From Bacteroidota bacterium (lineage in GTDB: Bacteria; Bacteroidota; Bacteroidia; J057; JADKCL01), in contig JANORP010000086.1 of NCBI GenBank assembly GCA_031415375.1, positions 16,569-80,568 on the forward strand: DNA of 64,000 nucleotides. Reading direction: 5' to 3'. The notes below the pieces were generated by a model that saw nothing but the letters and a program-made list of their open reading frames with translations, was not told where the DNA came from and did no database searches. Positions 1,141 through 45,310 of this stretch are shown here, in pieces. Position 1 is the stretch's first letter. Every line of letters starts with the position of its first letter. The position numbers and the translations under genes were made by a program.

Positions 1141-1188
1141 ATGTTTGATGCAAGATAGCTATCTTATGGCAAACAACATAATTGCGCT

Positions 1189-2681: not shown

Positions 2682-2720
2682 ACCCATCTTATTCCACGAT
2701 CGGCGTCGATTCACCTTGCT

Positions 2721-3694: not shown

Positions 3695-3915
3695 CCTTCG
3701 CCTTCCTTTCCGACAAAATTAATAGTTTTTTGCGGGAACTTCAAGTCCTATCTCAATTTTTCTTTCTACAGGCCCGTCCTAGGAAGATGTATCGCCGATC
3801 GATGGTACGAGCCACCGCCATCTTACGACAAGAATCATGTTCCCTGATCCCCCAAGAATCGTTATCTTTGAGCAAGTCCATCGATCGTATGGGCGCAATT
3901 ATTTTGCGATAGAAT

Positions 3916-4917
3916 ATGGTACAGGCAGTATTCAGGGACATTGAAACACAGCGTCAATTTGACGTAGATGGCTACGTCCATCTTCAGCACTTTCTAAGTA
4001 CCGAGGAGGTCGAAGCCCTCAAAGCAGCCTATTTCGAGCTGCTCCCTGAGAGTGGTGGTGCAATGTCGGGCGACGAGACCGACTTCAAAAACGAGAATGC
4101 GATCACCTACGATTTCACGTTCATTGACCGCAATTGGGAGTATAAACAAAAGGTGTTTGACCGCATTTTTGCGGCTTTTGAGGCTCATTTCGAGCCGATC
4201 CTTGCCGACTACACACCCATCATTGCCAATTTTATTCGCAAAGAAGCCGATGGTGGCGAGGTGCCACTGCATCAAAATTGGGCCTTTGTCGATGAGATGA
4301 AATACACCTCGGTCTCGATCTGGGTACCCCTTGTGGACAGCAATCGCGACAATGGCACCCTAGAGATCACTCCCGGAAGCCACAAGCGCTTTGGGCGATT
4401 CCGAGGACCCATGGTGCCTTGGGAACTCGACCATATCAAGGAAGACATCATCCGCGATTTCATGGTGCCCATGAATGCGACCGCTGGCGACGCCGTGATC
4501 CTCGACGACAGCGTCATCCACTACAGCAATATCAACACGACACAAGGCCTGCGCCTCACGATCCAACTGATCTTGGTGCCCAAAAATACAACGAGCATCC
4601 ACTACCACCTCGACCGTGGCGTAAGCACAGACGAGGTGCGCGTACTGGAAGTTGACCGTGATTTCTATATGAAATTTCACCCTTGGAAACGACCTGAGGG
4701 CAAGGAAGTCGGCAAGCGCAACGTGAAACTGCGCTATATCGACAGGGCAGAATTTGAAGCACGCTTGCATGGGCCTGAATTTTCCACAATGCCTGACATT
4801 GTGGAGGAGGCAGCGACCATGCCCGTGCAGGCAGAATCCGTCGCGCCATCGCAGCAGGCTGTAGCCGCGGCAGCGCCACTAGGTTTACTGGGCCGTCTCA
4901 AGCGCATTTTTTCATGA
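3916..4917 (+). CDS. PhyH-family Fe(II)/2-oxoglutarate dioxygenase
   Basis: LHQNWAFVDE, SIWVPLVDSNRDNGTLEITPGSH, SVIHYSNIN. C-terminal Ala/Pro-rich linker then LGLLGRLKRIFS. Its stop overlaps the next ATG (ATGA at 4914-4917). Confidence 0.85.
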   Translation: MVQAVFRDIETQRQFDVDGYVHLQHFLSTEEVEALKAAYFELLPESGGAMSGDETDFKNENAITYDFTFIDRNWEYKQKVFDRIFAAFEAHFEPILADYTPIIANFIRKEADGGEVPLHQNWAFVDEMKYTSVSIWVPLVDSNRDNGTLEITPGSHKRFGRFRGPMVPWELDHIKEDIIRDFMVPMNATAGDAVILDDSVIHYSNINTTQGLRLTIQLILVPKNTTSIHYHLDRGVSTDEVRVLEVDRDFYMKFHPWKRPEGKEVGKRNVKLRYIDRAEFEARLHGPEFSTMPDIVEEAATMPVQAESVAPSQQAVAAAAPLGLLGRLKRIFS

Positions 4918-9847: not shown

Positions 9848-10500
9848 TTTATGTCTCGGGGGAACATGAACTCCGACGACTTTCAAATAAAGGAAGTTCT
9901 TTTGAATTTGAGTGAGGGGTGTGCAAAGCATTTCATATAGGCTGGGTCGATGCCCTGCAAATGACTGATCGCAGCACAAACGTCAATTTCCGAACAGTCA
10001 CGAAAGCCATTTTCTGAATTGCATGCCCAAAAAGTGAATTTTGGCCACCAAACCAACTGGTGGATATCTCTGTAGATAGCACATCCTGCAATTGCAAACC
10101 ACCCACAAAAAAACCAGAATGGGTAGTCCAATGTTGACAACCAAGTTCCCAGCAAGCCAAAAGGCTTAATTATTGCCCAATTTACTAACAGTCATCCACA
10201 TTGACCACACATTGTACTAAAACGTATAGAGGAAAGAAGTTATCCACTTATCCACGGGCATAAGTAGATTCCACCAAATGGCCTCAGAGCCTAATTTCAT
10301 GGCCTGATTCGGTGTTGGGATCATGGAAGGGCGACCAAGCAACGATTGCGGGGTCACATTTCCATTCTGAACAATTACCGCCGCGATCTTACATTGTCCA
10401 CAAAACATTGATTTTTGAGCAACCGAAGGGATTTTATGCGCGTAAACCGCCTCAGGTACCTCGGTAATTTGTTAAATTCTCATCAACGAAAACATCTCGT

Positions 10501-12492: not shown

Positions 12493-12632
12493 CAATGCGC
12501 ACGCCTAGCGTGCACTTGTAACATCGGCAGAGGGAGTGTGGGTTGTGAGAAAATGCTCGCACTCAGACTCCCTCTCCCATTTCAGCGGAGCGTGATTGCC
12601 CCGTAGATTGTGTGGAATTCGTTTTCCTGAAT

Positions 12633-12640
12633 TATATTTG
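12633..12640 (+). promoter_or_regulatory. candidate Bacteroidota -7 promoter box (TAnnTTTG)
   Basis: TATATTTG lies 39 nt upstream of the ATG at 12679, which begins the signal peptide MMQKTALICLL. This position argues against the ORF-track start at 12655. Confidence 0.35.
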
Positions 12641-12678
12641 TTAATGTCCTCGGTATGGACTTGAAATCTGAAAAGGCT

Positions 12679-14913
12679 ATGATGCAAAAAACTGCCCTGA
12701 TCTGCTTGCTGACCTGCCTCTGTGGGCTAGGGCTGCTGCGTGCGCAAGAAAGGGTCATTTTCAAAGACGATTTCAAAGACAACCATCACGCCTGGACCAT
12801 GCAAGACGATGAAAAGGCGCATAGCGAGGTCGTCAATGGGCATTATCAGCTAGAGGGCAGGCAGCCCGATGCCGTGTCGATCTTCTTGCTCGATGAGTTG
12901 CCACTCAATGCCAGTCAGGATTTCACGATCCAAACCAAACTGATCCAGAAGTTTGGAGCCAAGGAAAATGGCTTTGGTTTTGTCTGGGGCGCTGCCGATG
13001 AAAGCAACTACTACGCATTCAACATCAATGCAGCTGGCCAATACCGCGTCGTGCGCTGCAGTCAAAGCAATGTCGAGGAACTCAAACCCTTCACGCAGAC
13101 CACAGGACTCGTGAAAACCGAGGGAGCAAACAAGTTGAGCCTGCGCACCGTGAGCGGCATGATGTCCTTTTACATCAACGATCAATTTATCTGGAGCCTC
13201 CCCAACCGCACTTTTCTCGGCAATCGTGCAGGCTATGTGCTCTATGGCAAAATGGAGGTAGAAGTCAATAGCCTCGAAGTGCTAGAGCTACAAGCCATGC
13301 CAGAAATCTTTGCCGAGCAATTTGACGACAACAGCCGTGGATGGGTCGTGACCGCTGCCGACAGCGCCTACATGATGATGGGCAAAGGACGCGTGCGCAT
13401 GAAAAATCAAAAAGGAGCTGCCCAGACCTATAAGCTCCGCGAAGTCCTCATCAACCCTGAGCGCGACTTTGAGATCGAAGCCCACATGAAACAAGTCACG
13501 GGCTCCCAAGAATTTGGATATGGCATCGGCTGGTCCATGAAAGACGATAAGAATGGCTATGCCTTCTTGATCCGTAGCCTGGGTTCATTCTCTGTGCGTC
13601 AGATCACCAATGGGCAGGTGAAAACCCTGGTCGATTGGACGCCAAGCAACCAGATGCTGCACCTCCGCGGCACCCCCAACAAGTTGGTGATCCGCAAGAC
13701 TGGCTTGCGCTACAACTTCTACCTCAACGATATTTGGATGGCCGAAGTGCCATTTACCAATATGACCGGGCAACAGCTGGGATTTGCCCTCGATGGTGAA
13801 AACCTTGTAGAGATGGACTATCTCGCCGTGCGCGAAGGTCAGAAAAGTTATGTTCCGCAGCCACCTGTCGTGACCCTGATCACACCGCAAGGCGACGACA
13901 TCACGGTCGATGCCAAAAGCATACAGTTCAAAGCTGGCATCAAGAGCGACTCCAAGCTCAACGGCGTGAAACTCATGGTGAATGACGAGCAGGTGCAAAT
14001 CCAGGCCAAGCGCGACCCCGAAGGCAAATTTGATCTCATGATCGACCAAGAGCTCGCCCTCAAACCCGGCTTCAACGACATTCGCCTCATGGCCAAAAAC
14101 GACGATGGCCTCATCCAGCGTTTTGGACTTCGCATCGCCGTCAAGACACCCGACCAACCCGTGAAGCGATCTGGCAACGACTATGCCCTCTTCATCGCCA
14201 CCGACAACTATGGTCAGTGGAGCCACCTCGTGAACCCTGTCAATGATTGCCGCACGATCGCCCAAGAACTGGAGACCAACTATGGCTTCAACACCGAGCT
14301 CATGATCGACGGCACCCGCAACGACATCCTCAAGAAACTGAAGGAATACGCCCGCAAGATATATGCAGACGGTGATCAGTTGATGATCTTCATCGCTGGG
14401 CATGGCAAGTTTGATGAGCTGTTTGGCGAGGGATATGTCGTCTGTACCGACTCCGAAAAGGACGATGAAGGCAACAACACCTACATCCCGCACTCCAACC
14501 TGCGCACGATCGTGAACGCCATTCCCTGCAAGCATACCTTTTTGATGATGGATGTATGCTTTGGCGGTACCATCGACCCCTTTATTGCCTCTGGTGGCGG
14601 CCACCGTGGCGAAGGCGATCCTGGTGGCGGCAAAGAACTCACCCAAAGCGACTTCATCGCCCGCAAATTGGCGTTCAAGACCCGTCGCTACCTCACCTCG
14701 GGCGGCAAAGAGTACGTTCCCGATGGCGTGCCTGGCAATCACTCCCCCTACGCCCGCAAATTTCTCGACGCCCTGCGCAACTATGGAGGCCACGACCGCA
14801 TCATGACCCTGGCCGAGCTTGTACTCTATTTCGAACGCCTCATTCCAGAGCCACGTTTTGGTGAGTTTGGGGCCAATGAACCAGGGAGCGACTTCTTGTT
14901 TATTGCGCGCTAA
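12679..14913 (+). CDS. secreted multi-domain protein with C-terminal caspase-fold (C14) peptidase domain (His/Cys dyad intact)
   Basis: Signal peptide MMQKTALICLLTCLCGLGLLRAQ. Two related beta-sandwich-like N-terminal repeats (FKDDFKDNHHAW..., FAEQFDDNSRGW...). Caspase block YALFIATDNY...LMIFIAGHGKF...HTFLMMDVCFGGT (Cys codon 14557-14559). Confidence 0.8.
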   Translation: MMQKTALICLLTCLCGLGLLRAQERVIFKDDFKDNHHAWTMQDDEKAHSEVVNGHYQLEGRQPDAVSIFLLDELPLNASQDFTIQTKLIQKFGAKENGFGFVWGAADESNYYAFNINAAGQYRVVRCSQSNVEELKPFTQTTGLVKTEGANKLSLRTVSGMMSFYINDQFIWSLPNRTFLGNRAGYVLYGKMEVEVNSLEVLELQAMPEIFAEQFDDNSRGWVVTAADSAYMMMGKGRVRMKNQKGAAQTYKLREVLINPERDFEIEAHMKQVTGSQEFGYGIGWSMKDDKNGYAFLIRSLGSFSVRQITNGQVKTLVDWTPSNQMLHLRGTPNKLVIRKTGLRYNFYLNDIWMAEVPFTNMTGQQLGFALDGENLVEMDYLAVREGQKSYVPQPPVVTLITPQGDDITVDAKSIQFKAGIKSDSKLNGVKLMVNDEQVQIQAKRDPEGKFDLMIDQELALKPGFNDIRLMAKNDDGLIQRFGLRIAVKTPDQPVKRSGNDYALFIATDNYGQWSHLVNPVNDCRTIAQELETNYGFNTELMIDGTRNDILKKLKEYARKIYADGDQLMIFIAGHGKFDELFGEGYVVCTDSEKDDEGNNTYIPHSNLRTIVNAIPCKHTFLMMDVCFGGTIDPFIASGGGHRGEGDPGGGKELTQSDFIARKLAFKTRRYLTSGGKEYVPDGVPGNHSPYARKFLDALRNYGGHDRIMTLAELVLYFERLIPEPRFGEFGANEPGSDFLFIAR

Positions 14914-14932
14914 GAACAAAACCTTTTCGACC

Positions 14933-15973
14933 GTGACAACCTCCCTCCTTCGCTGCCCCTACTGCCTGCAAGGCGTGCAGAGCTTCCTACGCGATGCCAA
15001 GACGAATGTACCGCATTGCCCCAATTGCCGCACCGACATCCCCAAAACCTTTTTGGACAGCGCACTTATGCTGCGCACGATGGTCGGCGTCGTCGGCTTC
15101 TCTGGGCATGGCAAGACCGTCTATCTCACATCGCTCTTCTCGACCCTCAAGCGCTTTTCCAACTATTGGAACGGCTACTATTTCAGGAGCCTCGACGACT
15201 TCACCCATCGTGTGATCTATGAGCAAGTCCCCCTTTTTGAAAAGGGCGACCTGCCAGAATCCACCCCCGCCAACTTCCCCAATCCAGCCTTGGTGCATTA
15301 CCATCAGCTGCCCGTGTTTCAAGATGCTTTCGTAGGCTACTACGACACGGCGGGCGAGGTTTTCAATGATGCTACGCAGATCGCAAGGGCTGGCTTTTTT
15401 GTCGCCCACTCAGACACCGTGCTCTTCATCGTGAGCATTCCCGACTGCGACTCTGGTGAACTTGATGATCACATGAGTCGCCTCCTTGATACTTATATCA
15501 GGGCTGCCGACGACAAACTCAACACCAACATTCGCAATACCCAGCGCTTGGTGGTGATTTTTACAAAATCCGACCTCCCGACGAGCCGGCTCAACGATGA
15601 ATTGAAAGACTGGCTCTCAAAAGGTGTGGCCGACTACTACGCCATGAACCTGAGCGACAAATTGCTCGATCTAGGCATGTTTTCGATCCGCATCGAAGAT
15701 TGGTTGCGCGAGGACCTCGGCTGCACCCGCTTTGCCAACATGGCCCGCGACCACTTCATCGAAGTGCGTTATACCATCGTGAGCGCCATGGGCATCACCG
15801 ACGACGATGATGAAAAACTCAGCCCCCTGCGTGTACTCGACCCCTTCCTCTGGGTCCTTGATTTTGCACGACGCGACAAGAAGATCATCGTCAAACAAAA
15901 CCTTTTCGAGCGCTTTATGGCATGGGTGAGAACCCGTAAAACTACCAAAATGCTCCCCGTGGGGACGAGATAA
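14933..15973 (+). CDS. zinc-ribbon-fused P-loop small GTPase
   Basis: Start moved to GTG 14933, 19 nt after the upstream stop (the ORF-track start 14819 overlaps the caspase gene). CPYC...CPNC ribbon. G1 GFSGHGKT (15095-15118), G3 DTAGE (15344-15358), G4 TKSD (15563-15574). Confidence 0.7.
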   Translation: MTTSLLRCPYCLQGVQSFLRDAKTNVPHCPNCRTDIPKTFLDSALMLRTMVGVVGFSGHGKTVYLTSLFSTLKRFSNYWNGYYFRSLDDFTHRVIYEQVPLFEKGDLPESTPANFPNPALVHYHQLPVFQDAFVGYYDTAGEVFNDATQIARAGFFVAHSDTVLFIVSIPDCDSGELDDHMSRLLDTYIRAADDKLNTNIRNTQRLVVIFTKSDLPTSRLNDELKDWLSKGVADYYAMNLSDKLLDLGMFSIRIEDWLREDLGCTRFANMARDHFIEVRYTIVSAMGITDDDDEKLSPLRVLDPFLWVLDFARRDKKIIVKQNLFERFMAWVRTRKTTKMLPVGTR

Positions 15974-15991
15974 GTCGCAAAAACAAAGCCC

Positions 15992-17815
15992 ATGAAAGTC
16001 CATCGCTACATCTACACACGGCTCACCAAGGACCTCTCCCCCACAGGTAAAAATGGTTTCCAATCCGCATTTGTGCCCGGCGACCTCATCGCACGCAAAG
16101 ATGTCTTGGAAATCGAGTCCCATATCCACTTTCCTGAAGGGTTGCAGATCGAAGGACAGTCAGTCGTGTTCTACAAGCAGGTCAAGACCGAGTTGTACAT
16201 GATTTTGCTCCTTCTACGGCCACTGCCCGATGTCAAGGATGACTTTGGGCGCAGTGGCGCTTTCTTGTGCGAAGGTTTTATTTTGGCAGAAAAGGATTGG
16301 CGACCCATCTGGCGAATCTCGGACTTGATCGAACTGGTCACGCCCTATCGTTTTGCATCGCTCGGGCAGCTACTTGCATCAACCGACGTCGATCGCACGA
16401 CGGGCTTCATTAGCGATCTCACGGTCACAGTTCCGCCAGGATATTGGACCGATGCACTGACATCGTCAGATGACGAGCCCCAAGAAGAATTGCTATTGGC
16501 GATGTACCACGTCGCCAAACTGCAAGACAAAGACTTGGCGATCGTCGTCGAAGGACTGCCAGCAGCCGTGACCCATAGGTTAGAAACCTGCGCCATGTTC
16601 ATGCCCGAGGCCCTGCGTGCACACACTGGATGGGACGATGCATTTGATGGCGGCAAGATTTTCTTTTCCCCACTCCGCATCTTCGGTTATAGCGAGCTAT
16701 TGCCCACCACCGGGAGACCCGTGGTGTTTCCCGCAGACGGGAGCGCACCCAAATGGCTAGAGGACGGTATGCAGCGTTTTGGAAAACCAAGCGATCCCTT
16801 CTCCAACTGGCTATTGGAAGTCTGCGTAAATACTGTACCCCGTGCACGGCTAGATGCAATGTATGCTTTGTCTCAAGCCATGATTTCTGGCAGACCTACC
16901 GCCATCGATATGGAAAGTGAGTCCATCTTCGAAATCGTCAACAAAGACGCGATTCGCAAGCTATTCATCCAAGGATTGCTGGTACACATGGAGCTGCCTT
17001 GGGCCGAGAAACTTGCTGACCTCACCATGGCCAACCATCAGCTCACCACATGGATGCAGGGATACCTCATCGCTGACCTCACCCATCTACTGGAAGTGAG
17101 CATCGTCTCTCAAAATCTGAGACCCGAGGGCATGAAAGACGCCCCTCCAACCAACCTTGTGCGCCAAGGCAGTGCAGCATTGCAGACGCTTGCAACGATG
17201 TGGACGCTTGAAATCATCACCCCAGAAATCTTGGATGACATCCCCGAGGATCAAATACCCGAGGTGCTCACCTTGATGCTCGGTAGAGGTTCCCATCAAG
17301 ACACCCCATTCGCGACAATCGTAAATCATTTTAGGGACTACTTGCACAAGCTTGCCAGAGATCCCAAAATCGCCGAGAACCTGCGTTGCTATGTCGCTGC
17401 AAAAGTCCCCGAGGAATATGTAGATTTCAAAGAAGGTATGGCAGCTGTAGCAGTACAATTGGGTGATTATGCCAGTCTGCGCGGCGAACCCACAGATTGG
17501 TTGCGCCTGCTAGACCGATGGCTCATTTCTACGGGAGGCAATTCCGAAGTCTGGAAAGCAGCAAAAACACTCGCTAAGACGACCGATCTAGGACGCTACG
17601 TCAATCTCAAAGCATTCGCCCTAGGTGAAGCTGCAATTCCTCATGAATTGGAGGGGAATGGCGATGGACGCAAAGGATTCCTAAGATGTCTCATAGAAGT
17701 CCATGGGTTCAATGAGCAAAAATTAATCGATATGGATTTTTTTTCAACAGAAGTCAGAGATTCCGGAAGCTCCACGGGCTTCATTGGCAAACTCAAGCGG
17801 CTCTTTGGACGGTGA
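15992..17815 (+). CDS. 607-aa GTPase-partner protein (GAP1-like N-terminus suspected) with MinD-like C-terminal amphipathic tail
   Basis: Lies 18 nt downstream of the GTPase gene. N-terminus IYTRLTKDLSPTGKNGFQSAFVPG resembles the YTS...G..GFQ..A.S.G signature of GTPase-associated protein N-domains (from memory, unverified). The remainder is mostly helical. C-terminus is GFIGKLKRLFGR. Confidence 0.6.
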   Translation: MKVHRYIYTRLTKDLSPTGKNGFQSAFVPGDLIARKDVLEIESHIHFPEGLQIEGQSVVFYKQVKTELYMILLLLRPLPDVKDDFGRSGAFLCEGFILAEKDWRPIWRISDLIELVTPYRFASLGQLLASTDVDRTTGFISDLTVTVPPGYWTDALTSSDDEPQEELLLAMYHVAKLQDKDLAIVVEGLPAAVTHRLETCAMFMPEALRAHTGWDDAFDGGKIFFSPLRIFGYSELLPTTGRPVVFPADGSAPKWLEDGMQRFGKPSDPFSNWLLEVCVNTVPRARLDAMYALSQAMISGRPTAIDMESESIFEIVNKDAIRKLFIQGLLVHMELPWAEKLADLTMANHQLTTWMQGYLIADLTHLLEVSIVSQNLRPEGMKDAPPTNLVRQGSAALQTLATMWTLEIITPEILDDIPEDQIPEVLTLMLGRGSHQDTPFATIVNHFRDYLHKLARDPKIAENLRCYVAAKVPEEYVDFKEGMAAVAVQLGDYASLRGEPTDWLRLLDRWLISTGGNSEVWKAAKTLAKTTDLGRYVNLKAFALGEAAIPHELEGNGDGRKGFLRCLIEVHGFNEQKLIDMDFFSTEVRDSGSSTGFIGKLKRLFGR

Positions 17816-18083
17816 TCGAAATCCGAACTCCAACATGGCAATGCCTCTCATTTTTCCGTGCTACTTGTTTGTAGGAAAATCGTCTCGGTTTTAGCCCATT
17901 TTCAAAGTGTACCCACTGATGCTCACGCATTGAGCAGCCCTAAACTCTTATCCACAAACCACTAAAATCTCCGATCTATTTCAGTGGCTCTAGAATTTGT
18001 AATTCCAAAATCTACTCGCTATTTTTCCGATGTATTGGTCCATCTGGGGCCCTATGTCATCGACCTAAAGCCACCTTATTCTC

Positions 18084-37019: not shown

Positions 37020-37373
37020 ATGAACAGCCGCATAGAATATTGGCTACAAATCAACCTAAATGAAGCCGATGAAACTTCAGTCACCGATTTATTGATGGTC
37101 AACGGTGCCACACTGAAACGAAACAATGCCTCGCTCAACCTTGTGTTTGTAGAAACGGAAGAAGTTCCTACGCGCGACTTCCTTTCAGAATTGGCCTTGC
37201 TGGTGAAAGCACAAGCACCAAAATTGATGGCGCTTGGAATCAGCGAAAACGACCTCGGAATCTTGGTACTTTACCAATATGACGCACAATGCAACATGGA
37301 GTTTTCCGTCCACCAACTCAAGCTACTCAGCGATGCAGGGCTTACGCTGAGCATTTCTTGTTGGCAAGGATAG
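37020..37373 (+). CDS. DUF4279-like small protein (tentative), immunity-island gene
   Basis: 117-aa ORF. C-terminal pattern ...LGILVLYQYDAQCNMEFSVHQLKLLSDAGLTLSISCW resembles DUF4279 family ends (from memory). Low confidence. Confidence 0.45.
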   Translation: MNSRIEYWLQINLNEADETSVTDLLMVNGATLKRNNASLNLVFVETEEVPTRDFLSELALLVKAQAPKLMALGISENDLGILVLYQYDAQCNMEFSVHQLKLLSDAGLTLSISCWQG

Positions 37374-37393: not shown

Positions 37394-38575
37394 TCACCCC
37401 TCCTGCGCCACCGAACTCAACAGCAACTTTGTATTGTGCTCCAAACTCGGCGCACCCGTGAGTTTGAGTGAAATCGGCGGCATTGCGGCATCGTGGCGAT
37501 GTTGCAAGGCTTGCACGACGGCACTCACGGCCCAGTCATAATTCATGGGTTGATTGCCGATGATTTCCAGCGCATCCACATCGGCTGAGACCGCTGTTTT
37601 GCGGTCCTCGTTCCAGAGCGACATCAGCAGTGTGCCTTCGGTGAGATCGCGCTGTGTTTCCCCGCCGATCTGACCCACGACGGTCTTGACATCAAGTTCC
37701 AGATCATTCGCTTCCAAGCAGATACGACAGCGCACCCATGTCCAATCTGCATATTCCAATTGTGTGGCGCGGGCATTGCAATTGCGGCAATAGACGCTTG
37801 GAAAAGCCAACCTTTGCGCCAATTGTGAATAGATGATGTCGTCGATTTTCTCGGCCGTCAGGTGCATGTTTCTGCGGTTTTGGCCTTTGCGAAAACCTCC
37901 GAGTGCCACAGCCTGTTTCCAAGCCTTGTGCTCTTCCATGAGCTTGGCCATAGGGCCGAGTTTCAAGACATATTTGCCACTTGCGACCATGCTCAACACG
38001 CGGTGGGCCTCCATCGCAGCATTGCGAACCTCTACATCGGGGTCGGCTTTCAACTTCTCCAACGCTCCCAAGCCCACACGCGGATCCAATTCCATCAGAC
38101 CATTGACCGCTGCAATGCGCACCTCGGGGTCTGGATTGCGTCCTAGGTCGAAGATAAATGCCTTTGCAGTCTCCAAGTCACAAAAAGCGGCGATCTTTTT
38201 GGCGGTGACGACCAGCATCCATAGCCTGAAGGTTTGCGTTTTTTTGCCTGAATAGTCATATCTGAGCAAGCGTGGCACAAAATAGCCCACACCAAAGGCG
38301 ATCAAAGGGCCAGTTTGCTCCCTTAAAAAGGCCGCGACGATGAAAAACGCAAAGCCGATAAAGGCTGGCATCAAGTGAATAAAAAAGAGAAGATTCGGCC
38401 TACGCGTAAGCAGTTTCGCGCGCTTCAAGATGCCTTTGGGACGCGTGAGCCAGCCTGGCTCTAGCCACCAACGCCCCCACTTCTCAGCCCGCGCCTTGGC
38501 ATTGTAGCCGACCATGTAGGCCACGAAGACCCCCAAGAGGAGGCTGAATAGTCCATAAGTTTCTTCCCACTGCAT
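37394..38575 (-). CDS. TM + HEAT-repeat + zinc-ribbon + conserved C-terminal-domain protein, paralog 1 of 6
   Basis: N-terminal hydrophobic helices. HEAT-like DPEVRIAAVNGLMEL and DPDVEVRNAAMEA. YSQLAQRLAFPSVYCRNC...WVRCRIC, VVGQIGG, LEIIG, YDWAVSAVVQAL. Confidence 0.8.
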   Translation of the reverse strand: MQWEETYGLFSLLLGVFVAYMVGYNAKARAEKWGRWWLEPGWLTRPKGILKRAKLLTRRPNLLFFIHLMPAFIGFAFFIVAAFLREQTGPLIAFGVGYFVPRLLRYDYSGKKTQTFRLWMLVVTAKKIAAFCDLETAKAFIFDLGRNPDPEVRIAAVNGLMELDPRVGLGALEKLKADPDVEVRNAAMEAHRVLSMVASGKYVLKLGPMAKLMEEHKAWKQAVALGGFRKGQNRRNMHLTAEKIDDIIYSQLAQRLAFPSVYCRNCNARATQLEYADWTWVRCRICLEANDLELDVKTVVGQIGGETQRDLTEGTLLMSLWNEDRKTAVSADVDALEIIGNQPMNYDWAVSAVVQALQHRHDAAMPPISLKLTGAPSLEHNTKLLLSSVAQEG

Positions 38576-38677
38576 AGGTTACAATTGATTGATGGCTGAA
38601 AATTAAGCATCTAAATGCTGCTGCGCAAATCCGTGCATGCTCTCGGCAAGACGATGGCATTGCTCCAAAGGCGCAGC

Positions 38678-39901
38678 TCATGGCACCAAATGAAATTGAG
38701 GATCGAGGTCGCGCAGCAATTGCTGTGTGTTGCGCGACATGACGGGCGCATCCACCAGCTTCACGCGGATGCCTTTCCCATAATCAGGGTTTTCATTGTG
38801 CAATTTCTCAACGACGGCACTCACCGCCCAATCGTAATCGAATGGCGACCCACCGATGATTTCCAACGTTGTCATCGTCGCATTGCGCGCTTTTTGCGTG
38901 CGCACATCCCAGAGCTGCACATGTAGCATGCCCGAGACCAAATTCCAATCTTTGGAACCGCCGATCTGCCCTGTGACCTGCGCAATATCGGCCACGAGAT
39001 ACATGGCCTCCTTGCATTGCACGCAGCGCACCCAATCCCATTCCAAATAGGATTGTTGCTCGGCGATGGCATAACATTGCCGACAATACAACAGCGGAAA
39101 AGCCCTGCGCAATATCACCTGCGAATACACGATTTCATCGATGCGCTTGCCCGTCTTTTCAAAGAGGCTCTCGTAGTCGGTGCGCGAAGCAACCTCTGAG
39201 CGACGCTTTCGCAATCCATCCAAATTTTTGTGGTCGGCGATCAGTGCATTCATCTGACCCAAGCCGAGCGGCGGGCTTACCAACAACTTCTGAAGGGAAA
39301 TGATGGTAGCCAACGCAGCTGTCACAACCTCTGGCACGGGGTCTTTGGCCAATTTCTCCAAGATCGGTAAATGGTCGAGCGTCCCTAGCTCTTTGAAGCC
39401 CGTTGCTGCCGCGATGCGCAATGTCGGCTGGCTTTGATGAGCAGATGCCGACAGCAGTGCCACGGCATCCTCGGAATTGCCCAAACGAGTGATCATCTTT
39501 GCACCGAGCTCAGCAATCGCAAGCCTGAAATTGCGTAGCCTTTTGCCCAAACCCAAAAAATAGCCGATCCCAAAAGCCACACAATATCCTGCACACATCC
39601 CCATGGCATCGGTCAGAAAATCTGTGTCAAGCAAGGGGAAACTACCGCTATAGGTCGCCCAATAAAACATTCCACCAAATACAACCGCTGGCGTAACCAG
39701 CGACCAAGCATGCAACCAATTGTAAGGCAACAGCGCCAATTTGGCACGCCAAAGCACCTTTTGTGTTGCATTGTGGCCGCGCGGTCGCCAATAGCCCGAT
39801 TTCTCATTGGGTTTGAGATTCAAAAAACTAGGGAGACTCGTGAGAAAAATCACGCACCCCATGAGGCTCCAAAGCAAAAAAGAGGAAGATGAATCAGGCA
39901 T
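38678..39901 (-). CDS. TM + HEAT-repeat + zinc-ribbon + conserved C-terminal-domain protein, paralog 2 of 6
   Basis: YSQVILRRAFPLLYCRQC...WVRCVQC, VTGQIGG, LEIIGG, YDWAVSAVVEKL. HEAT-like LRIAAATGFKELG...DPVPEVVTAALATI. Confidence 0.8.
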   Translation of the reverse strand: MPDSSSSFLLWSLMGCVIFLTSLPSFLNLKPNEKSGYWRPRGHNATQKVLWRAKLALLPYNWLHAWSLVTPAVVFGGMFYWATYSGSFPLLDTDFLTDAMGMCAGYCVAFGIGYFLGLGKRLRNFRLAIAELGAKMITRLGNSEDAVALLSASAHQSQPTLRIAAATGFKELGTLDHLPILEKLAKDPVPEVVTAALATIISLQKLLVSPPLGLGQMNALIADHKNLDGLRKRRSEVASRTDYESLFEKTGKRIDEIVYSQVILRRAFPLLYCRQCYAIAEQQSYLEWDWVRCVQCKEAMYLVADIAQVTGQIGGSKDWNLVSGMLHVQLWDVRTQKARNATMTTLEIIGGSPFDYDWAVSAVVEKLHNENPDYGKGIRVKLVDAPVMSRNTQQLLRDLDPQFHLVP

Positions 39902-39907
39902 AGGCTA

Positions 39908-41143
39908 TCAATCATTTAAAGGTGTATGGTTTTCAGCCGCAAGCGTAGGATCTATGGTGCGCAATAAACTGTATGAATTCGACGACAGGAGCGGATAATG
40001 GGTGAGCACCACGTAAGGTCGAGGTGCGTCGTAGGTCACAAACGTATGCAACTGCTCCACGACAGCGCTCACTGCCCAGTCGTAGGCGATGTCTTGCAGG
40101 CCCACAATTTCCAGCCGATCGAGCTCGGCACCACGCGCCTTGCGTTCCTCACGGTCCCAAAGGCTCAATTTCAGTTCGCCATGGTGCAATTCCCAGGCCT
40201 CGACCCCGCCGATCTGCCCGGTCACCACCACGACACCAGGCTTCATCCCAAAGACGTCTTTGCAGCGTTTGCAGCGCACCCAAGCCCAATCTTTGAAATG
40301 GAGTTCCTCGCCTCTACAGCGACAGTCCATACAATAGACAGAGGGAAAAGAGCGTCGTAGGGGCAGCTGCGCATAAATCACGCGGTCAAATATTTCCTTC
40401 AAGCGATGGTATTCGACCAGCAAATCGGCCTTGAGGGTGGCATCGACCATGATGTCGAGCTGCGAATCGAGCCTTGCATAATCCAGGGCAACTTGCTCCA
40501 AAGAAATGACGCTTTCGCGCATTTGGCCAATGAGAACGGCCTGAATTTTTTCCAGTGAGTTCTTGGCAGCAAGGCGCACTTCTTGGCAGGCGTCATGCGT
40601 GAGTTGCTCCAAGATCGCATTGCCAGTTGCGGTGCCCAAGTACCGCAAGGCGATCGCTGCCGCGAGGCGTTGGCGCTTCTCAGGCTCTAAGCTCGCTTGC
40701 CCCAAGATCAGCTCAGCATCGTCCAATGTACCGCGTCGTGCGATTGCCTTGGCAGCTTGTATCGCCTCTGCTTGCAGGTGCTCACCAATCGCCTTGCGCA
40801 AACCGAGGAAATAACTGCCCCCAACGCCCAACGCAGCACCAAGCAGATAGCCTCCAAAGATATCCCAACGCAATGAACCTGCCAGCTGCCCATCGCCAGT
40901 CCCCCATGTCAATACCGAAAGCAACAAGCCCACAAGTCCCGTAGGGAGCACCAAATTCCAGGTAAATAGATACGCTCGCTTGGACAGCGCCAGTCGCACG
41001 CGACGTGTGAGCCTCTGGCCCGCAAGCTTGCCGACAGGATGCCAAAATGGGGATCGGTCATCGGTTTGGGAGCGGATATAAGCGGGGATACTGGCTAGGA
41101 AGACAGCCATCCCAAAGAACCCCGCGCCTAGCATCGCATCCAT
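39908..41143 (-). CDS. TM + HEAT-repeat + zinc-ribbon + conserved C-terminal-domain protein, paralog 3 of 6
   Basis: YAQLPLRRSFPSVYCMDC...WVRCKRC, VTGQIGG, LEIVG, YDWAVSAVVEQL. Start moved from the TTG at 41293 to the ATG at 41143 (MDAMLGAGFFGMAVFLAS) to match the N-termini of the other paralogs. Confidence 0.8.
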   Translation of the reverse strand: MDAMLGAGFFGMAVFLASIPAYIRSQTDDRSPFWHPVGKLAGQRLTRRVRLALSKRAYLFTWNLVLPTGLVGLLLSVLTWGTGDGQLAGSLRWDIFGGYLLGAALGVGGSYFLGLRKAIGEHLQAEAIQAAKAIARRGTLDDAELILGQASLEPEKRQRLAAAIALRYLGTATGNAILEQLTHDACQEVRLAAKNSLEKIQAVLIGQMRESVISLEQVALDYARLDSQLDIMVDATLKADLLVEYHRLKEIFDRVIYAQLPLRRSFPSVYCMDCRCRGEELHFKDWAWVRCKRCKDVFGMKPGVVVVTGQIGGVEAWELHHGELKLSLWDREERKARGAELDRLEIVGLQDIAYDWAVSAVVEQLHTFVTYDAPRPYVVLTHYPLLSSNSYSLLRTIDPTLAAENHTPLND

Positions 41144-41337
41144 GTAAGTGAGCTTGTATTTGAACTTACAAGATAAGAAAAATTGGATTAAGTGCTGCAC
41201 GCTTTGGCGGTCAAAAGGTGCCATCAATACAACAACTACTGGAAGTCTTTGTGCGCTGAGAAATGAAGCGTCACAACGTCGATGCAGCGTCAAAGCACTA
41301 ATCGGGAGCGATGCCGTTTTTCAAAATCCCACGCAAC

Positions 41338-42549
41338 TCACTCTGGCGCACGCAGCTCAAAGGTCGGCACGATGCTCTGATCCAAAGTCTTGAGTAAATG
41401 CAAGGAATTGGCTTCCAACACGGGATTGCCGACAAGTTTCACCGCGATGCGCGAACCAACGCCGAGGCTTTGGTTGTACAATTTATCGACGATGGCGCTC
41501 ACGGCCCAGTCGTAATTGATGGGCTTGCCACCCACGATTTCCAAGACATCGAGGTCGGCTGCGCGCGCTTTGCGGCTTGCATCGTCCCAGAGGTTTAAAT
41601 GCAATTTGCCGTTTTGGATGTCCCAGCTGACATCGCCGCCGATCTGTCCTATGGCTTGCTGCACACCCGGCTGCAGGCCATGTACCTCCTTGCATTGGCG
41701 GCAGCTCACCCAGTCCCATTCTTCATAATGGTGCTGCTCGGCACGGGCATAGCAGTTTTGGCAATAGACATCTGGAAATGAGCGCCGCAATGGCAATTGC
41801 GAAAAGACGATCTCGTCGATCTGCCGCGTGATTTCATGAAACTTCTCAAGGTCCAAGCTGTATTGGCGCTTCTTTCTCTTGCTGCGGAGACGCTTCACAA
41901 GGTAGGCATGCTCAGACACGTAGGTGTCCATGGTGCGCACACTCAGCCGGCCCTTGCCCTGATAGACTTGATGCAAGTCATTGTAGGCATCACGTGCCGC
42001 CGTGGCGACCGCTGTTTCCTTGTCTTCGCCGAGCAGCAGCAGGGCCTCGCCACCCTCCTTGGTCCCCAATTCGCGCAGGCCCATGGCAGCTGCGATGCGC
42101 AATGCAGGGTCTGTCGATTTGGTCAATGGCACCAAGATCGCATTGGCGGTAGCGGGTTGCACGCGGCGGGCGAGTTTTTGCGCTGCAAAAATGGCGATTT
42201 GCTTGCGGTAATTGGAGAGGGTATTCTTGTGGTCGAGCGGATAAGCGATGGCGGCGGCACCTGCGTAGCCGATCATGCCGCCGATGACAAGCGTGGCCGG
42301 CACGCTGAGTGGCAAAAGATAGATGGCCCCCAAAAATAGGCCCATGGCGAGCAAAGGCGAAAACAAGGGCAAGAGATACAAATGATTCCTCGATGACAGT
42401 GCCGTCTTCACGCGACGCACAAAACCTGCTTCACCACTTGGCCGCCATGGCCTAAACCAGCGGTACAGCCACCGCGGCTCCTCGCGGCCAAGCGCCTTGA
42501 TCGACCCCAATAGTGTGATCGCACCAGCAAATATTCCCCAAGTCAGCAT
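41338..42549 (-). CDS. TM + HEAT-repeat + zinc-ribbon + conserved C-terminal-domain protein, paralog 4 of 6
   Basis: FSQLPLRRSFPDVYCQNC...WVSCRQC, AIGQIGG, LEIVGG, YDWAVSAIVDKL. HEAT-like DPALRIAAAMGLRELG. Confidence 0.8.
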   Translation of the reverse strand: MLTWGIFAGAITLLGSIKALGREEPRWLYRWFRPWRPSGEAGFVRRVKTALSSRNHLYLLPLFSPLLAMGLFLGAIYLLPLSVPATLVIGGMIGYAGAAAIAYPLDHKNTLSNYRKQIAIFAAQKLARRVQPATANAILVPLTKSTDPALRIAAAMGLRELGTKEGGEALLLLGEDKETAVATAARDAYNDLHQVYQGKGRLSVRTMDTYVSEHAYLVKRLRSKRKKRQYSLDLEKFHEITRQIDEIVFSQLPLRRSFPDVYCQNCYARAEQHHYEEWDWVSCRQCKEVHGLQPGVQQAIGQIGGDVSWDIQNGKLHLNLWDDASRKARAADLDVLEIVGGKPINYDWAVSAIVDKLYNQSLGVGSRIAVKLVGNPVLEANSLHLLKTLDQSIVPTFELRAPE

Positions 42550-42650
42550 TGTTCCAAAAGGTGATGAATGAGCCTGATGTCAAAACTAAGTAAAAGATGC
42601 GACTTGGTAGAAGATCAAGCACCCCAAGACAAATCACAAATCCACCAATC

Positions 42651-42722
42651 GAAGCGGGAGAAGCGGGAGAAGCGGGAGAAGCGGGAGAAGCGGGAGAAGC
42701 GGGAGAAGCGGGAGAAGCGGGA
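42651..42722. repeat. 8 x 9-bp perfect tandem repeat (GAAGCGGGA)
   Basis: Read directly: gaagcggga x8 from 42651 to 42722. The last unit is the normal left arm of hairpin 1 of repeat-element copy C, so the tract is an expansion of that arm. Confidence 0.95.
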
Positions 42723-42770
42723 GCCTCCGGCTCCAACGCTGACACAACCGTGAGCCTCCGGCTCACGAAA
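42714..42770. repeat. palindromic repeat element, copy C (core hairpins; outer arms degenerate)
   Basis: GAAGCGGGAGCCTCCGGCTCCAACGCTGAC...GTGAGCCTCCGGCTCACGAAA has the same two hairpins and spacer as copies A and B. Located in the 275-nt spacer between paralogs 4 and 5. Confidence 0.7.
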
Positions 42771-42824
42771 AAAACACCTATCGTCTCGCACACCCACCGA
42801 CCAGCAATCATCACCTCACCACGC

Positions 42825-44012
42825 TCAACGCAAAATACCCAAATTGCCATCGAGCGCCCTAAGCAAACTCAAGCTGTTAGATTCCAAAACCGGCTCGCCG
42901 ACCAGCTTTACCGGAACTTCAGGGTGCAGCTGTGAGCTGTGCTGCTGCAAGCACTCCACGACTGCGCCCACCGCCCAATCGTAATGGATGCCCTGCCCAC
43001 CCATGACGTGCAATTCGTCCAGATCAGCACCCACGCCCGTGCGTGCGTCCTCATCCCAAAGTTGCAGCGTCAATGTACCCGCATGCAATCCCCACGGTCC
43101 ATTGCTACCGATATGCCCGACCACATCAATGATCCCCGTCTGCAAGCCGCCGACCGTCTTGCACTTGCGGCAGCGCACCCAGTCACGCCCCTCATGCACG
43201 AGACGCTGGGCACGGGCATTGCAAGCCCGGCAATAAACATGGGGAAAAGCGCGGCGCAAGGGCAATTGTGAACCAACGACCTTGTCCATGGTCCACAAGA
43301 TATCCGCCATGCGCATGCGTGACGCGTAGCGCCCCGGCCATATCGAACGCCAAGGGAGCCCATTTTCCAGTTGGTGGTATTCCTCGACCAAAGTATCCAT
43401 GCCTTCTACCGGTTGCGGTGCCAACTCACCATCCCAGGATTGCTTCAACTCCAGAAAGTCCCGCCGCGCCTGTGCACCGTGACTCGACTGATCCATTGCG
43501 CCAAGACCCCTCAGTTCCTCCATGGCCTCTGCCGTGCCCAGCGCCCGCAAGGCCTGCAAGGCAGCAAACCTGAAATCCACCGTCGCAGACTTCGCAAACG
43601 ATACCAAGATGTCATTGGCAATGGCTGGTGAAAGCCGATAGGCGGCTTCGCGTGCGCAATGGGTCACGATCTTGATGCGGTAAGATTTGAATAGCCCCAA
43701 GAGCAATCCCAAGAGTGCCGCAATAGAATATGTGCCAATGAGTGCGACAACAAATGGCATTTGGGCCGCGATGCCGCCCCACAGTAGCAGGAGTATCCCG
43801 CCCACGAGAAGCAAAGGCAACGGCAAAAAGATGCGCAGTGAATACAACCAACCTTGTGAGGACAAAGCCCTTCGCACGCGTGACTCAAACTTGACAACGG
43901 TGCGCGGTGCAAATGCACTCACATTGCGGCTGATCCAAGTCGCACTTCCACCCAGCATTCCTGCGGTGCGCAGCAAAAAACAAACAATCCCGATCACAAT
44001 TCCTGTTGACAT
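42825..44012 (-). CDS. TM + HEAT-repeat + zinc-ribbon + conserved C-terminal-domain protein, paralog 5 of 6
   Basis: GSQLPLRRAFPHVYCRAC...WVRCRKC, VVGHIGS, LHVMGG, YDWAVGAVVECL. This is the most divergent copy. Confidence 0.8.
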   Translation of the reverse strand: MSTGIVIGIVCFLLRTAGMLGGSATWISRNVSAFAPRTVVKFESRVRRALSSQGWLYSLRIFLPLPLLLVGGILLLLWGGIAAQMPFVVALIGTYSIAALLGLLLGLFKSYRIKIVTHCAREAAYRLSPAIANDILVSFAKSATVDFRFAALQALRALGTAEAMEELRGLGAMDQSSHGAQARRDFLELKQSWDGELAPQPVEGMDTLVEEYHQLENGLPWRSIWPGRYASRMRMADILWTMDKVVGSQLPLRRAFPHVYCRACNARAQRLVHEGRDWVRCRKCKTVGGLQTGIIDVVGHIGSNGPWGLHAGTLTLQLWDEDARTGVGADLDELHVMGGQGIHYDWAVGAVVECLQQHSSQLHPEVPVKLVGEPVLESNSLSLLRALDGNLGILR

Positions 44013-44101
44013 GGTCTATGCTATCTGTTGATCGCGCTGCCTGCATTTGCGCGGGGCTACGCCCAAAGTTGCGTCAGCCTTCCGAAACAAGCAACAGCAC
44101 C

Positions 44102-45310
44102 CTAATTGGGCCATCTGAAGTCTTGGTCTATCGTCTTGAGCAAACGCAATGTGTTGGGTTCCAACACAGGATCCCCGACGAGTTGCACAGGTATCTCAGC
44201 GCGGTCTTGGGCGTTGTGTTTGTGAAACAGCTCGACGACCGCACTTACTGCCCAGTCGTAGGTGATGGCCTGGCCAGCAGCGATTTCCAATCGGGAAATT
44301 TCCCCGAGGCGGGCGATACGCGTGGCCTCATTCCAGAGATTGACCCGCAGCGTACCCTCGTGGAGGACCCAGTCCTCGGCTGCTCCGATCTGCCCGATCA
44401 CTTCGTGTACCCCTGGCACGAGGTCATCGGCTTGGTGACATTGTTTGCAACGCAACCAATCCCAGCTTTCGTAGGCGAGCAATTCGGGGCGTGCATAACA
44501 GGTCTTGCAATACACATCTGGAAACGAACGCCGCACAGCGAGTTGCGAGAAAACCAAGTCGTCCATTTGCTGCATGACCAGATCCAGTTCTTGGGCGTGC
44601 TGGATGCGGTCGCGCTTGGATTTGCGGCGATAGATTTGCGCGATCAGTTGGCGATGTGCGATGGCTAGCGCCGGCATACTTGCGACTGGGATGGGCTTGG
44701 TCTTGCCATCGGTCAAAGCCAGGAGTTCATTGCGGGCAAGTCCGGCGGCATCGGCGACCTCGGGCGATTGATCCTGAACCAAATAATGCAGCATTTGTAC
44801 AGCCGATGGCGTGCCGACTGCCCGCAACGCTTTCACTGCGGCGAGGCGGCTCTCCCACCACGACCCATTGGCCAATTGCGCCAAAAACTTGACTGCCACA
44901 TCGGGATGTAGGCGGCGAGCGACTTCCAAGGCCGCATAACGCTGGGCTTCGAGGCCATAGCGGACGAGTTTGTCTGAGGCGAACGCCAAAACCCCAAGCG
45001 TGCTGCTACTGACCAAGAAACCAATGCCAAAGATTTCAAAAGCACTCCCAGGCTCGACAAAAAACGCCATGGCAAAGGCCCAAAACCCGAGAAACGGTAG
45101 TATCGAAAAGAAAAATGGCAGTGTGAGAAGTTTGGGCGAGGCGCTCATTGCTTGCCTCAGCCGCCGAATTGTGCGGGTATCGCCATCGGTACCTCGCTGC
45201 CTAAACCAGCGAAATTTCCACACAGGACCCATCTTGAGCCGATGGCGGATGCGTGCATACATCCAAACCGCTCCCGAAACGAGGCCCAAAGTCAATCCGG
45301 CATCAGCCAT
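44102..45310 (-). CDS. TM + HEAT-repeat + zinc-ribbon + conserved C-terminal-domain protein, paralog 6 of 6
   Basis: FSQLAVRRSFPDVYCKTC...WLRCKQC, VIGQIGA, LEIAAG, YDWAVSAVVELF. HEAT-like SRLAAVKALRAVG...DQSPEVADAAGLA. Confidence 0.8.
   Translation of the reverse strand: MADAGLTLGLVSGAVWMYARIRHRLKMGPVWKFRWFRQRGTDGDTRTIRRLRQAMSASPKLLTLPFFFSILPFLGFWAFAMAFFVEPGSAFEIFGIGFLVSSSTLGVLAFASDKLVRYGLEAQRYAALEVARRLHPDVAVKFLAQLANGSWWESRLAAVKALRAVGTPSAVQMLHYLVQDQSPEVADAAGLARNELLALTDGKTKPIPVASMPALAIAHRQLIAQIYRRKSKRDRIQHAQELDLVMQQMDDLVFSQLAVRRSFPDVYCKTCYARPELLAYESWDWLRCKQCHQADDLVPGVHEVIGQIGAAEDWVLHEGTLRVNLWNEATRIARLGEISRLEIAAGQAITYDWAVSAVVELFHKHNAQDRAEIPVQLVGDPVLEPNTLRLLKTIDQDFRWPN

Follow-up and report, generated by a model that had tools for sequence, protein, structure and literature searches.

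A probable single-GTPase variant of the DO-GTPase/GAP1 systems in Bacteroidota, with a third recurrent protein family

A stretch of 64,000 nucleotides (nt) from a Bacteroidota bacterium (assembly GCA_031415375.1, contig JANORP010000086.1, positions 16,569 to 80,568; hereafter the window) encodes, side by side on the forward strand, a zinc-ribbon GTPase of 346 amino acids (aa) and a partner protein of 607 aa. As judged by homology and gene order, the pair is a member of the DO-GTPase/GAP1 systems, a kind of system that was predicted computationally by Kaur et al. (2020, PMC7159879). It is probably a compact variant of the N2 type, in which a single zinc-ribbon TRAFAC GTPase, a fast-evolving GAP1 and an array of a third family, called F2 here, work together in the manner proposed below. 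The original prediction, made from the same DNA without database searches, had described a GTPase-centred conflict or signalling module formed by the pair and two caspase-fold neighbours. Every sequence detail that it gave (GTPase motifs, lengths of the open reading frames (ORFs), coordinates) was correct, but it drew the module too small, missing the F2 family, whose six paralogs lie 19.6 kilobases (kb) downstream of the pair on the opposite strand. The features discussed are listed in Table 1.

A zinc-ribbon GTPase of the DO-GTPase2 family

The GTPase gene reads as an ORF of 346 aa from a GTG at 14933 to a stop at 15973, and this start is supported because homologs begin at the same position (e.g., MTTHLLRCPYC, VTTALLRCPYC). 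The Pfam family DO-GTPase2 (PF19993) matches residues 50-233 with 44.5 bits (cut-off 27, E 1.9e-11) and is the sole Pfam family to exceed its cut-off for this protein, in line with the earlier view that it stands outside the universal translation and ribosome-assembly GTPases. A database search returned 89 relatives, nearly all of which carry a PF19993 annotation and whose only names are hypothetical or ‘Double-GTPase 2’; the ones that bear a taxon all come from Bacteroidota or from Bacteroidia metagenome-assembled genomes. These sequence results place the 346-aa protein among the DO-GTPase2 proteins and outside the housekeeping GTPases.

An alignment of 51 homologs shows how well the nucleotide-binding motifs are kept. 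G55, F56, G60, K61 and T62 of the G1 motif are invariant, as are D138, T139 and G141 of G3 and K212 and D214 of G4, while the glutamate of G3, E142, is present in at least 90% of the sequences. A switch-I-like stretch, LPESTPANFPNP, is invariant or at least 90% conserved. The protein carries a single zinc ribbon, not two; C29 of the ribbon is invariant and C8, C11 and C32 are found in at least 90% of the homologs. A glutamate in Walker B together with an N-terminal zinc ribbon is what defines the DO-GTPases according to Kaur et al. (2020). One or more such ribbons are present in 60% of the family, two being usual in N2 systems, and paired paralogous GTPase genes occur in 38% of DO-GTPase systems and are hence not obligatory (PMC7159879). 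Scanning the window with a hidden Markov model (HMM) of the GTPase gave one match and no second copy. A sequence search of the PDB found no solved structure related to the GTPase.

A GAP1 beyond the reach of Pfam models

The partner ORF begins 18 nt past the GTPase stop and its N-terminus reads RYIYTRLTKDLSPTGKNGFQSAFVPG. Is this protein a GAP1? The original prediction had seen in its N-terminus a likeness to the N-domain signature of GAP1 and had proposed a search with the Pfam GAP1 models. Such a search gives no direct answer: nothing in Pfam, PADLOC or NCBIfam matched the 607-aa protein at E ≤ 0.1, and a word-seeded search returned 15 relatives, each of about 605 aa and free of Pfam domains. 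The kinship appears through profile searches only. When a family profile built from these 15 close relatives was searched against 1.84 billion cluster representatives, it retrieved 238 proteins at E ≤ 1e-3, 70 of them below 1e-30. Among the distant matches that were scanned, 48 of 74 match Pfam GAP1-N2 (PF20013), and GAP1-N2 proteins were reached by the profile at E 1e-15 to 1e-7. Eight such relatives were scanned singly: seven score 28.8-43.4 bits (cut-off 24) and one 22.8, and three of the eight also match GAP1-M (PF20014) weakly.

Aligned by hhalign with these eight GAP1-N2 proteins, the partner family gives a probability of 99.5% (E 3.1e-23) over 460 columns and residues 5-498. The N-terminal signature of the family, ‘RYIYTRL..SPtGK.GFQSAF’, falls on the GAP1-N2 consensus ‘QHIYaNVE..SPq..gGFQTLF’, and the distant relatives match GAP1-N2, not GAP1-N1, which bears out the earlier suspicion and settles the type. 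The partner is thus assigned to GAP1-N2 because its family profile reaches Pfam-verified GAP1-N2 proteins and because of the hhalign result; by these sequence comparisons it is an N2-type GAP1 whose clade lies outside the range of Pfam models. Pfam likewise fails to detect two relatives that are intermediate in divergence. Both the N-terminal motif and the C-terminal tail are kept in the 15 close homologs and in about 30 more distant ones.

The pair across loci

The loci compared came from contig look-ups, from three genome loci and from 79 metagenome loci, and were scanned with HMMs. GTPases matching the alignment HMM below 1e-100 are referred to as clade A, and adjacency was counted over the 27 clade-A loci with at least 600 nt downstream of the GTPase. 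A GAP1-like ORF on the same strand, starting between -144 and +31 nt from the GTPase stop, is found in 24 of the 27, all except L009, L013 and L022. Two proteins, P0113 (GTPase HMM 1e-126, GAP1 HMM 1e-97) and P0149 (1e-120 and 1e-68), are complete GTPase-GAP1 fusions. The two genes do travel together, which the gene-neighbourhood check suggested with the original prediction had left to be seen. Of the two proteins, GAP1 is much the faster to diverge, the paired identities (GTPase/GAP1) to the window proteins being 84/63, 79/41, 72/37 and 64/28%. More distant loci (clade B) show the classical arrangement, in which a GAP1-N2 gene is flanked by two GTPase genes.

Several loci depart from the simple pair. 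The clade-A GTPase at L009 (9001-10071), which shares 55% identity with that of the window, is an orphan: it has no GAP1 or F2 within 9 kb and adjoins an opposite-strand gene for a BipA-type translational GTPase (GTP_EFTU and BipA_C domains). In L037 (3893-9005), and also in L017, L021, L023, L029, L034 and L035, the pair sits inside a larger operon with a ClpB-like AAA+ ATPase (AAA_2), three unnamed families and a small radical-SAM/Fer4_12 protein encoded directly upstream of the GTPase. In two distant DO-GTPase2 loci, L005 (8376-14627) and L011 (3079-17516), the gene right after the GTPase is not GAP1; in L005 it encodes a 791-aa protein that matches no family, in L011 an nSTAND3 NTPase, and a Band_7 protein comes next, while the GAP1-N2 gene lies about 5.7-5.9 kb downstream. 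Upstream there is a protein kinase gene, close by in L005 and at a greater distance in L011, where the kinase is fused to an AAA domain.

F2, a third recurrent component

Clustering of neighbouring genes revealed F2, a family of proteins of about 400-460 aa, in 15 of 26 selected clade-A loci, and an HMM search found it in 22 of 91 sources, the window included. It is present in 12 of the 13 loci with long flanks, the exception being L009, where GAP1 is missing too. F2 genes directly follow GAP1 in L001, L003, L007 and L010. L001 and L003 have two or three of them in convergent orientation and L007 five; L010 also has five, on the same strand. Copy number in related loci ranges from one to five; the window has six, all recognized by the F2 HMM (Table 1).

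The F2 N-terminus is hydrophobic, with one to three segments according to a crude hydropathy scan. HEAT repeats score near the Pfam threshold (HEAT_2, 25-29 bits), the protein also has a ribbon of the form CxxC-x16-CxxC, and LWD and YDWA motifs mark its conserved C-terminal domain. The six window paralogs share 26-38% pairwise identity, with the C-terminal third best conserved. The family is small and has no name of its own: a search with a single sequence found 28 relatives, the best name among them being ‘HEAT repeat domain-containing protein’, and PADLOC yielded weak HEAT-repeat matches only. Comparison of F2 with GAP1 by hhalign (probability 0.1%) shows no relationship. The idea that F2 is a degenerate, membrane-anchored second GTPase, suggested by a comparable spacing of its CxxC pairs and by ‘VxGQIGG’ following the ribbon, was rejected at an hhalign probability of 3.8% against the GTPase alignment.

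Cationic tails on both partners

The membrane-targeting tail of E. coli MinD is KGFLKRLFGG. The original prediction had likened the C-terminus of the partner to this helix, and the likeness holds at the level of the family: the partner ends in the cationic amphipathic segment GFIGKLKRLFGR, which is conserved in the 15 close homologs, and in all 32 C-termini examined in the wider family the last 14 residues sum to a net charge between +2 and +7 and contain spaced hydrophobic positions. The hydrophobic moment of the tail over 11 residues is 0.76, the fifth-highest 11-residue window of the protein, and an AlphaFold2 model places a low-confidence helix at residues 598-606. Several classical GAP1-N2 proteins end in similar cationic tails.

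A second tail, which had gone unmentioned, is present on the GTPase. Its C-terminal segment, LFERFMAWVRTRK, has equivalents at the same alignment position in homologs (SLFQRIMQWFRRKK, FWKRLFGKK, GWFSRLFKRNK, IWERLFAWKQ), and to judge from its sequence it would, like the partner tail, bind the membrane. The resemblance to helices of the MinD/FtsA type lies in the short, cationic and amphipathic extreme C-terminus, the KRLFG core and the conservation across a family. In contrast to those helices, the present tails belong to a GTPase and a GTPase regulator rather than to a ParA/MinD ATPase, and their membrane binding, like any dependence of it on nucleotide state, is predicted.

Fold of GAP1 and a longin-DENN lead

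AlphaFold2 modelled the full-length partner with a predicted local distance difference test score (pLDDT) of 89 and a predicted template-modelling score (pTM) of 0.78, and residues 1-285 with 88.7 and 0.89, respectively. The model shows three globular domains, N, M and C. In the N-domain the order of elements is β-β-α-β-β-β-α-α, which is the longin topology. For the all-helical C-terminal region, Foldseek returned ARM/HEAT-like matches, all of them non-significant.

Two loops of the N-domain stand out. One, the glycine-flanked DxxGRxG loop, contains Arg87, a candidate arginine finger and the sole invariant column in a superfamily alignment of 74 sequences. The other, SPxGKxG, is also invariant and comes immediately before strand 2. 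GAP-type longins have a ‘GP motif’ in the β1-β2 loop, beside the arginine finger (PMC12290439), and it is this position that the SPxGKxG loop of the partner occupies.

Which known proteins does the model resemble? With the full model, Foldseek found nothing in the PDB below 1e-3; the top matches were 6ulg_N, from an FLCN-FNIP2-Rag-Ragulator complex, and DENND10. With residues 1-285, the best match was 7mge_C, from the C9orf72-SMCR8-WDR41-ARF1 complex (E 4.7e-5, probability 0.97), and the best 13 matches include DENND10 (5e-3), the FLCN-FNIP2 complex chains 6ulg_N (1e-2) and 8dhb_I (1.7e-2) and the GATOR1 chain 7t3a_B (E 0.097). The template-modelling scores (TM-scores) of these longin-DENN matches are low (0.21-0.33), and the chains 7mge_C, 6ulg_N, 8dhb_I and 7t3a_B are known by complex, not by subunit. 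Sequence look-ups in the PDB place both C9orf72 and SMCR8 in 7mge without giving chain letters; WDR41 is unlikely to be 7mge_C because no other beta-propeller is among the 50 best Foldseek matches. At the sequence level there is no DENN support, as hhalign of the partner against human C9orf72 gives a probability of 0.3-0.6%; the best local match falls at the start of the core DENN domain, which is anecdotal, the alignment being non-significant. A search of PDB sequences with the partner profile produced no relevant match.

The resemblance may extend to general architecture. Like the longin-DENN regulators (C9orf72-SMCR8, FLCN-FNIP, the NPRL2/3 proteins of GATOR1, DENND10) and the MglA/MglB pair, the partner would combine a longin N-domain with an α/β domain and a helical domain, and its gene adjoins that of its presumed cognate GTPase. 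Gly/Pro-rich loops and an invariant arginine inside the longin-like domain are also shared with longin-DENN proteins, whereas the cognate GTPase is not of the Ras, Arf or Rag type. Kaur et al. (2020, PMC7159879) make no mention of longin, DENN or roadblock, and the literature examined reports DENN modules from eukaryotes and Asgard archaea, with bacterial ones unmentioned. The longin-DENN resemblance of the partner is a lead, not a result. A bolder idea is conceivable though rather unlikely: that the GAP1s are bacterial longin-DENN-type regulators with an arginine finger, that a DO-GTPase and its GAP1 are the counterpart of the Rag-FLCN or Arf-C9orf72/SMCR8 pairs of eukaryotes and Asgard archaea, and that with the F2 arrays they form a transmembrane sensor in which nucleotide state controls reversible membrane docking.

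Proposed mechanism and relation to published systems

How might the three components act together? The GTPase and GAP1 would form a complex through the longin-like N-domain of GAP1, and with Arg87 as a candidate finger, GAP1 may set the nucleotide state of the GTPase. If each short tail alone binds the membrane weakly, as in MinD, complex formation could, by avidity, bring the pair reversibly to the cytoplasmic membrane, on its inner face. The membrane-bound pair might then engage the conserved cytosolic ribbon and C-terminal domain of F2, while the variable hydrophobic and HEAT parts of F2 could serve as diversified sensors or outputs. In the subclade that has them, an exported caspase/pseudo-caspase pair may be an extracytoplasmic output. 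A role in sensing or response, in biological conflict or to another envelope-level signal, is most likely and is also the least supported step of this scheme; conflict is suggested by the variable accessory genes, the fast evolution of GAP1 and F2, and the toxin and toxin-antitoxin genes nearby.

The system shares with the published DO-GTPase/GAP1-N2 systems (Kaur, Burroughs, Iyer and Aravind, 2020, eLife, PMC7159879) a TRAFAC GTPase with a Walker B glutamate and an N-terminal zinc ribbon, a three-domain GAP1 encoded directly downstream and sometimes fused, variable accessory genes and an apparent site of action near the membrane, in addition to a partner homologous to Pfam GAP1-N2. It differs in having one GTPase with one ribbon instead of the usual two ribbons or two GTPases, a GAP1 below Pfam detection, predicted membrane contact through amphipathic tails rather than transmembrane segments, and exported caspases. 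The host also differs, being a member of the Bacteroidota, whereas N2 systems are reported mainly from Actinobacteria, Firmicutes, Planctomycetes, Verrucomicrobia and Chloroflexi (PMC7159879). Arrays of F2, with membrane, HEAT and zinc-ribbon parts, stand in place of the accompanying protein with rapidly evolving fibronectin type III (FNIII) repeats that is described for N2 systems (PMC7159879).

In other respects the locus recalls the DO-GTPase/GAP1-N1 systems with GASH, which are reported in Bacteroidetes with caspase effectors and one zinc-ribbon GTPase (PMC7159879). The relatives of the partner are of the N2 type, however, and among the window ORFs scanned no second GTPase, EAD or GAAD domain was detected, nor any GASH protein, for which the original prediction had proposed a model search.

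A number of observations weigh against a compact N2-type conflict system. Complex formation, GAP activity, membrane binding and interaction with F2 are each steps that we infer, and the searchable literature yielded no experimental study of any DO-GTPase/GAP1 system, as had been surmised from the start. No fn3 match, and hence no FNIII-repeat protein, was found among the roughly 50 window ORFs scanned. In PADLOC-DB 2.0 neither the GTPase nor GAP1 has a meaningful match; generic caspase and HEAT models are the ones that respond. No GTPase homolog was found in plasmid or phage collections, and the locus is unlike a mobile defence island because its closest relatives keep a conserved chromosomal neighbourhood. 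Co-regulation of the pair with F2 cannot be assumed in the window, as they lie so far apart and on opposite strands. Finally, a cytoplasmic GTPase cannot act directly on the caspases, because these are exported.

Caspase genes: output or bystanders?

Two caspase-fold genes precede the GTPase gene on the same strand, as originally described, the second of them stopping 19 nt before the GTPase start. In the first, the catalytic cysteine is replaced (DAS) in the window, with DAS or DAG in all five orthologs, and one ortholog (among L001, L003, L004 and L007) has also lost the catalytic histidine; its N-terminal region has weak RHS/YD-repeat similarity (a weak RHS_repeat match). The second keeps its His-Cys dyad, with AGHG and DVCFGG in all orthologs. 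Both caspases have Sec signal peptides, ending at AWA|QQ in the first and, in signal-peptide-like fashion, at LRA|QE in the second. Their N-terminal regions are large and extracytoplasmic. The GTPase and GAP1 are without signal peptides. The best NCBIfam model for the caspases, ‘caspase, EACC1-associated type’, scores below its cut-off. With EACC1-associated caspases and caspase/pseudo-caspase pairs they share the Peptidase_C14 domains and the placement of an active gene beside one without the catalytic cysteine; the signal peptides, the large extracytoplasmic N-termini and the lack of an EACC1 domain set them apart. Genes for an extracytoplasmic function (ECF) sigma factor and an outer-membrane barrel stand beside the caspases in L001, L003 and L004, not in the window.

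The original prediction took the caspases as likely effectors. Their presence and spacing stand, but the case for an effector role is weak: it is doubtful because the genes are confined to one subclade, both products are exported and the first has no catalytic cysteine. That the caspase genes are no functional part of the module, and are simply neighbours co-inherited in one lineage of related genomes, falls just short of an even chance. They are confined to the window and to L001-L004 and L006-L008, loci whose GTPases share 64% identity or more with that of the window; at least 16 further loci of clade A lack them, as does the P0054 locus. The L007 copy of the active caspase gene is broken into two ORFs. 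The adjacency is itself weak evidence of function because synteny in the subclade extends well beyond the module, and the signal peptides likewise separate the caspases from the pair. Against mere co-inheritance, the gap between the second caspase gene and the GTPase gene remains at 19-50 nt in five loci despite a GAP1 identity of 28-41%, spacing that suggests that the two genes are probably co-transcribed; that an active caspase is consistently coupled with an inactive one points to a regulated unit; and caspase-superfamily peptidases are listed among the effectors of DO-GTPase/GAP1-N1 systems (PMC7159879). A functional link between the caspases and the GTPase module is about evenly balanced and, if real, must act across the membrane.

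Conflict system or membrane switch?

Alternatively, the GTPase, GAP1 and F2 may form a housekeeping or developmental membrane switch, concerned with envelope organization, polarity or control of secretion, and not a conflict system. This is the less likely explanation, but several of the points raised above would fit it. The genes are chromosomal, with amine oxidase, spermine synthase and DUF4178 genes as syntenic flanks common to the window and L001; the GTPase is missing from the plasmid and phage collections; and defence models match neither the GTPase nor GAP1, and F2 only through weak HEAT-repeat hits. Longin-type regulators with small GTPases usually govern polarity or trafficking (PMC3521125), and the links of classical N2 systems are with tubulin, HSP70 and kinases, not with toxins (PMC7159879). 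Such a switch is harder to reconcile with the patchy distribution and the changing accessory genes (a caspase pair, an AAA+ ATPase with a radical-SAM protein, or none), with the fast evolution of GAP1 and of the multi-copy F2 paralogs, and with the one genome in which an orphan GTPase has neither GAP1 nor F2. The notion that the 346-aa protein is a known housekeeping GTPase, or that the partner is unrelated to GAP1 and adjacent by chance, has in its favour that Pfam GAP1 models miss the 607-aa protein directly, and is already refuted by DO-GTPase2 being the sole Pfam family above its cut-off, by the hhalign match to verified GAP1-N2 proteins, and by the 24 adjacent loci and two fusions.

Other features of the neighbourhood

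The convergent gap between GAP1 and the F2 array is filled by a polymorphic-toxin and immunity island of about 19 kb, which is not part of the system. It encodes a 2285-aa protein with eCIS_core (DUF4157), TNT and YwqJ-deaminase domains, a 943-aa eCIS_core protein, two PoNi immunity proteins and a MORN protein; G+C content dips to 0.43-0.48 at 24-28 kb within it, and no structural genes of a contractile injection system were seen in the window. The island is absent from this position in L001, L003, L004, L007 and L010, while a homologous giant protein follows GAP1 in L006, and it looks like an insertion into the GAP1-F2 gap. The giant eCIS_core/TNT/deaminase protein was considered as an effector of the system and rejected, since it does not follow GAP1 in those five loci.

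At 2721-3694 on the minus strand, a SocA/Panacea-domain antitoxin (3167-3694) and an adjoining 151-aa ORF without a family match are probably a toxin-antitoxin pair. In the stretch 45342-48792 on the minus strand, a PhoD-like phosphatase with a weak match to a type IX secretion system (T9SS) sorting domain ends 31 nt before the first F2 gene; ahead of it lie a 2H/LigT-like phosphoesterase and an unnamed 333-aa ORF, an arrangement that is not kept in L001. At 119-6734 on the plus strand, three PhyH-type dioxygenase genes, one of them double-domain, stand beside two small proteins with T9SS C-terminal sorting domains. Scans of 9900-18200 for promoters, limited to sigma-70-type sites, and for terminators gave counts no higher than in shuffled sequence. 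The window has no tRNA genes.

Table 1. Positions of the GTPase, GAP1, F2 and neighbouring features in the window
Feature	Position	Strand	Basis or remark
Exported pseudo-caspase, 663 aa	10501..12492	+	Peptidase_C14, E 3.6e-15
Exported caspase with intact His-Cys dyad, 752 aa	12655..14913	+	Peptidase_C14, E 2.9e-14
Zinc-ribbon DO-GTPase2 gene, 346 aa	14933..15973	+	GTG start; Pfam PF19993
Zinc ribbon CPYC-x17-CPNC, residues 8-32	14954..15028	+	CPYC 8-11, CPNC 29-32
G1/Walker A GFSGHGKT, residues 55-62	15095..15118	+	Conserved motif
G3/Walker B DTAGE, residues 138-142	15344..15358	+	With the Glu typical of DO-GTPases
G4 TKSD, guanine-specificity motif, residues 211-214	15563..15574	+	Conserved motif
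GTPase C-terminal cationic amphipathic segment LFERFMAWVRTRK, residues 324-336	15902..15940	+	Homolog alignment
GAP1-type partner, divergent N2 type, 607 aa	15992..17815	+	Family profile and hhalign
GAP1 N-domain, residues 1-130	15992..16381	+	Longin-like topology in AlphaFold2 models
SPxGKxGFQ loop of the N-domain	residues 16-24	+	Conserved residues
DxxGRxG loop with Arg87	codon 16250-16252	+	Invariant Arg
GAP1 middle α/β domain, residues 150-280	16439..16831	+	Models; hhalign coverage; weak GAP1-M matches in relatives
GAP1 C-terminal all-helical region, residues 284-590	16841..17761	+	Model; hhalign to residue 498
Partner MinD-like cationic amphipathic tail GFIGKLKRLFGR, residues 596-607	17777..17812	+	Conserved
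Polymorphic-toxin/immunity island, not part of the system	18084..37373	+	Fills the convergent gap from GAP1 to the F2 array
Array of six F2 paralogs	37394..45310	-	F2 HMM, E 1e-65 to 1e-96 for all six
Individual F2 paralogs	37394-38575, 38678-39901, 39908-41293, 41338-42549, 42825-44012, 44102-45310	-	F2 HMM

Implications

DO-GTPase/GAP1 systems are widespread, and the present locus offers a minimal version of them, made up of a single GTPase, a single GAP1 and a single membrane-partner family. It belongs to a Bacteroidota clade of at least 70 sequence clusters (representatives at 50% identity) that current Pfam GAP1 models do not see, and annotation pipelines would at present call the partner and the F2 proteins hypothetical. 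Several features lend themselves to direct testing, namely the candidate arginine finger Arg87, the two MinD-like tails and the natural fusions. If the longin-DENN homology were true, this regulator architecture would exist in Bacteria, and that would matter for the question of how the regulators of trafficking GTPases in eukaryotes arose.

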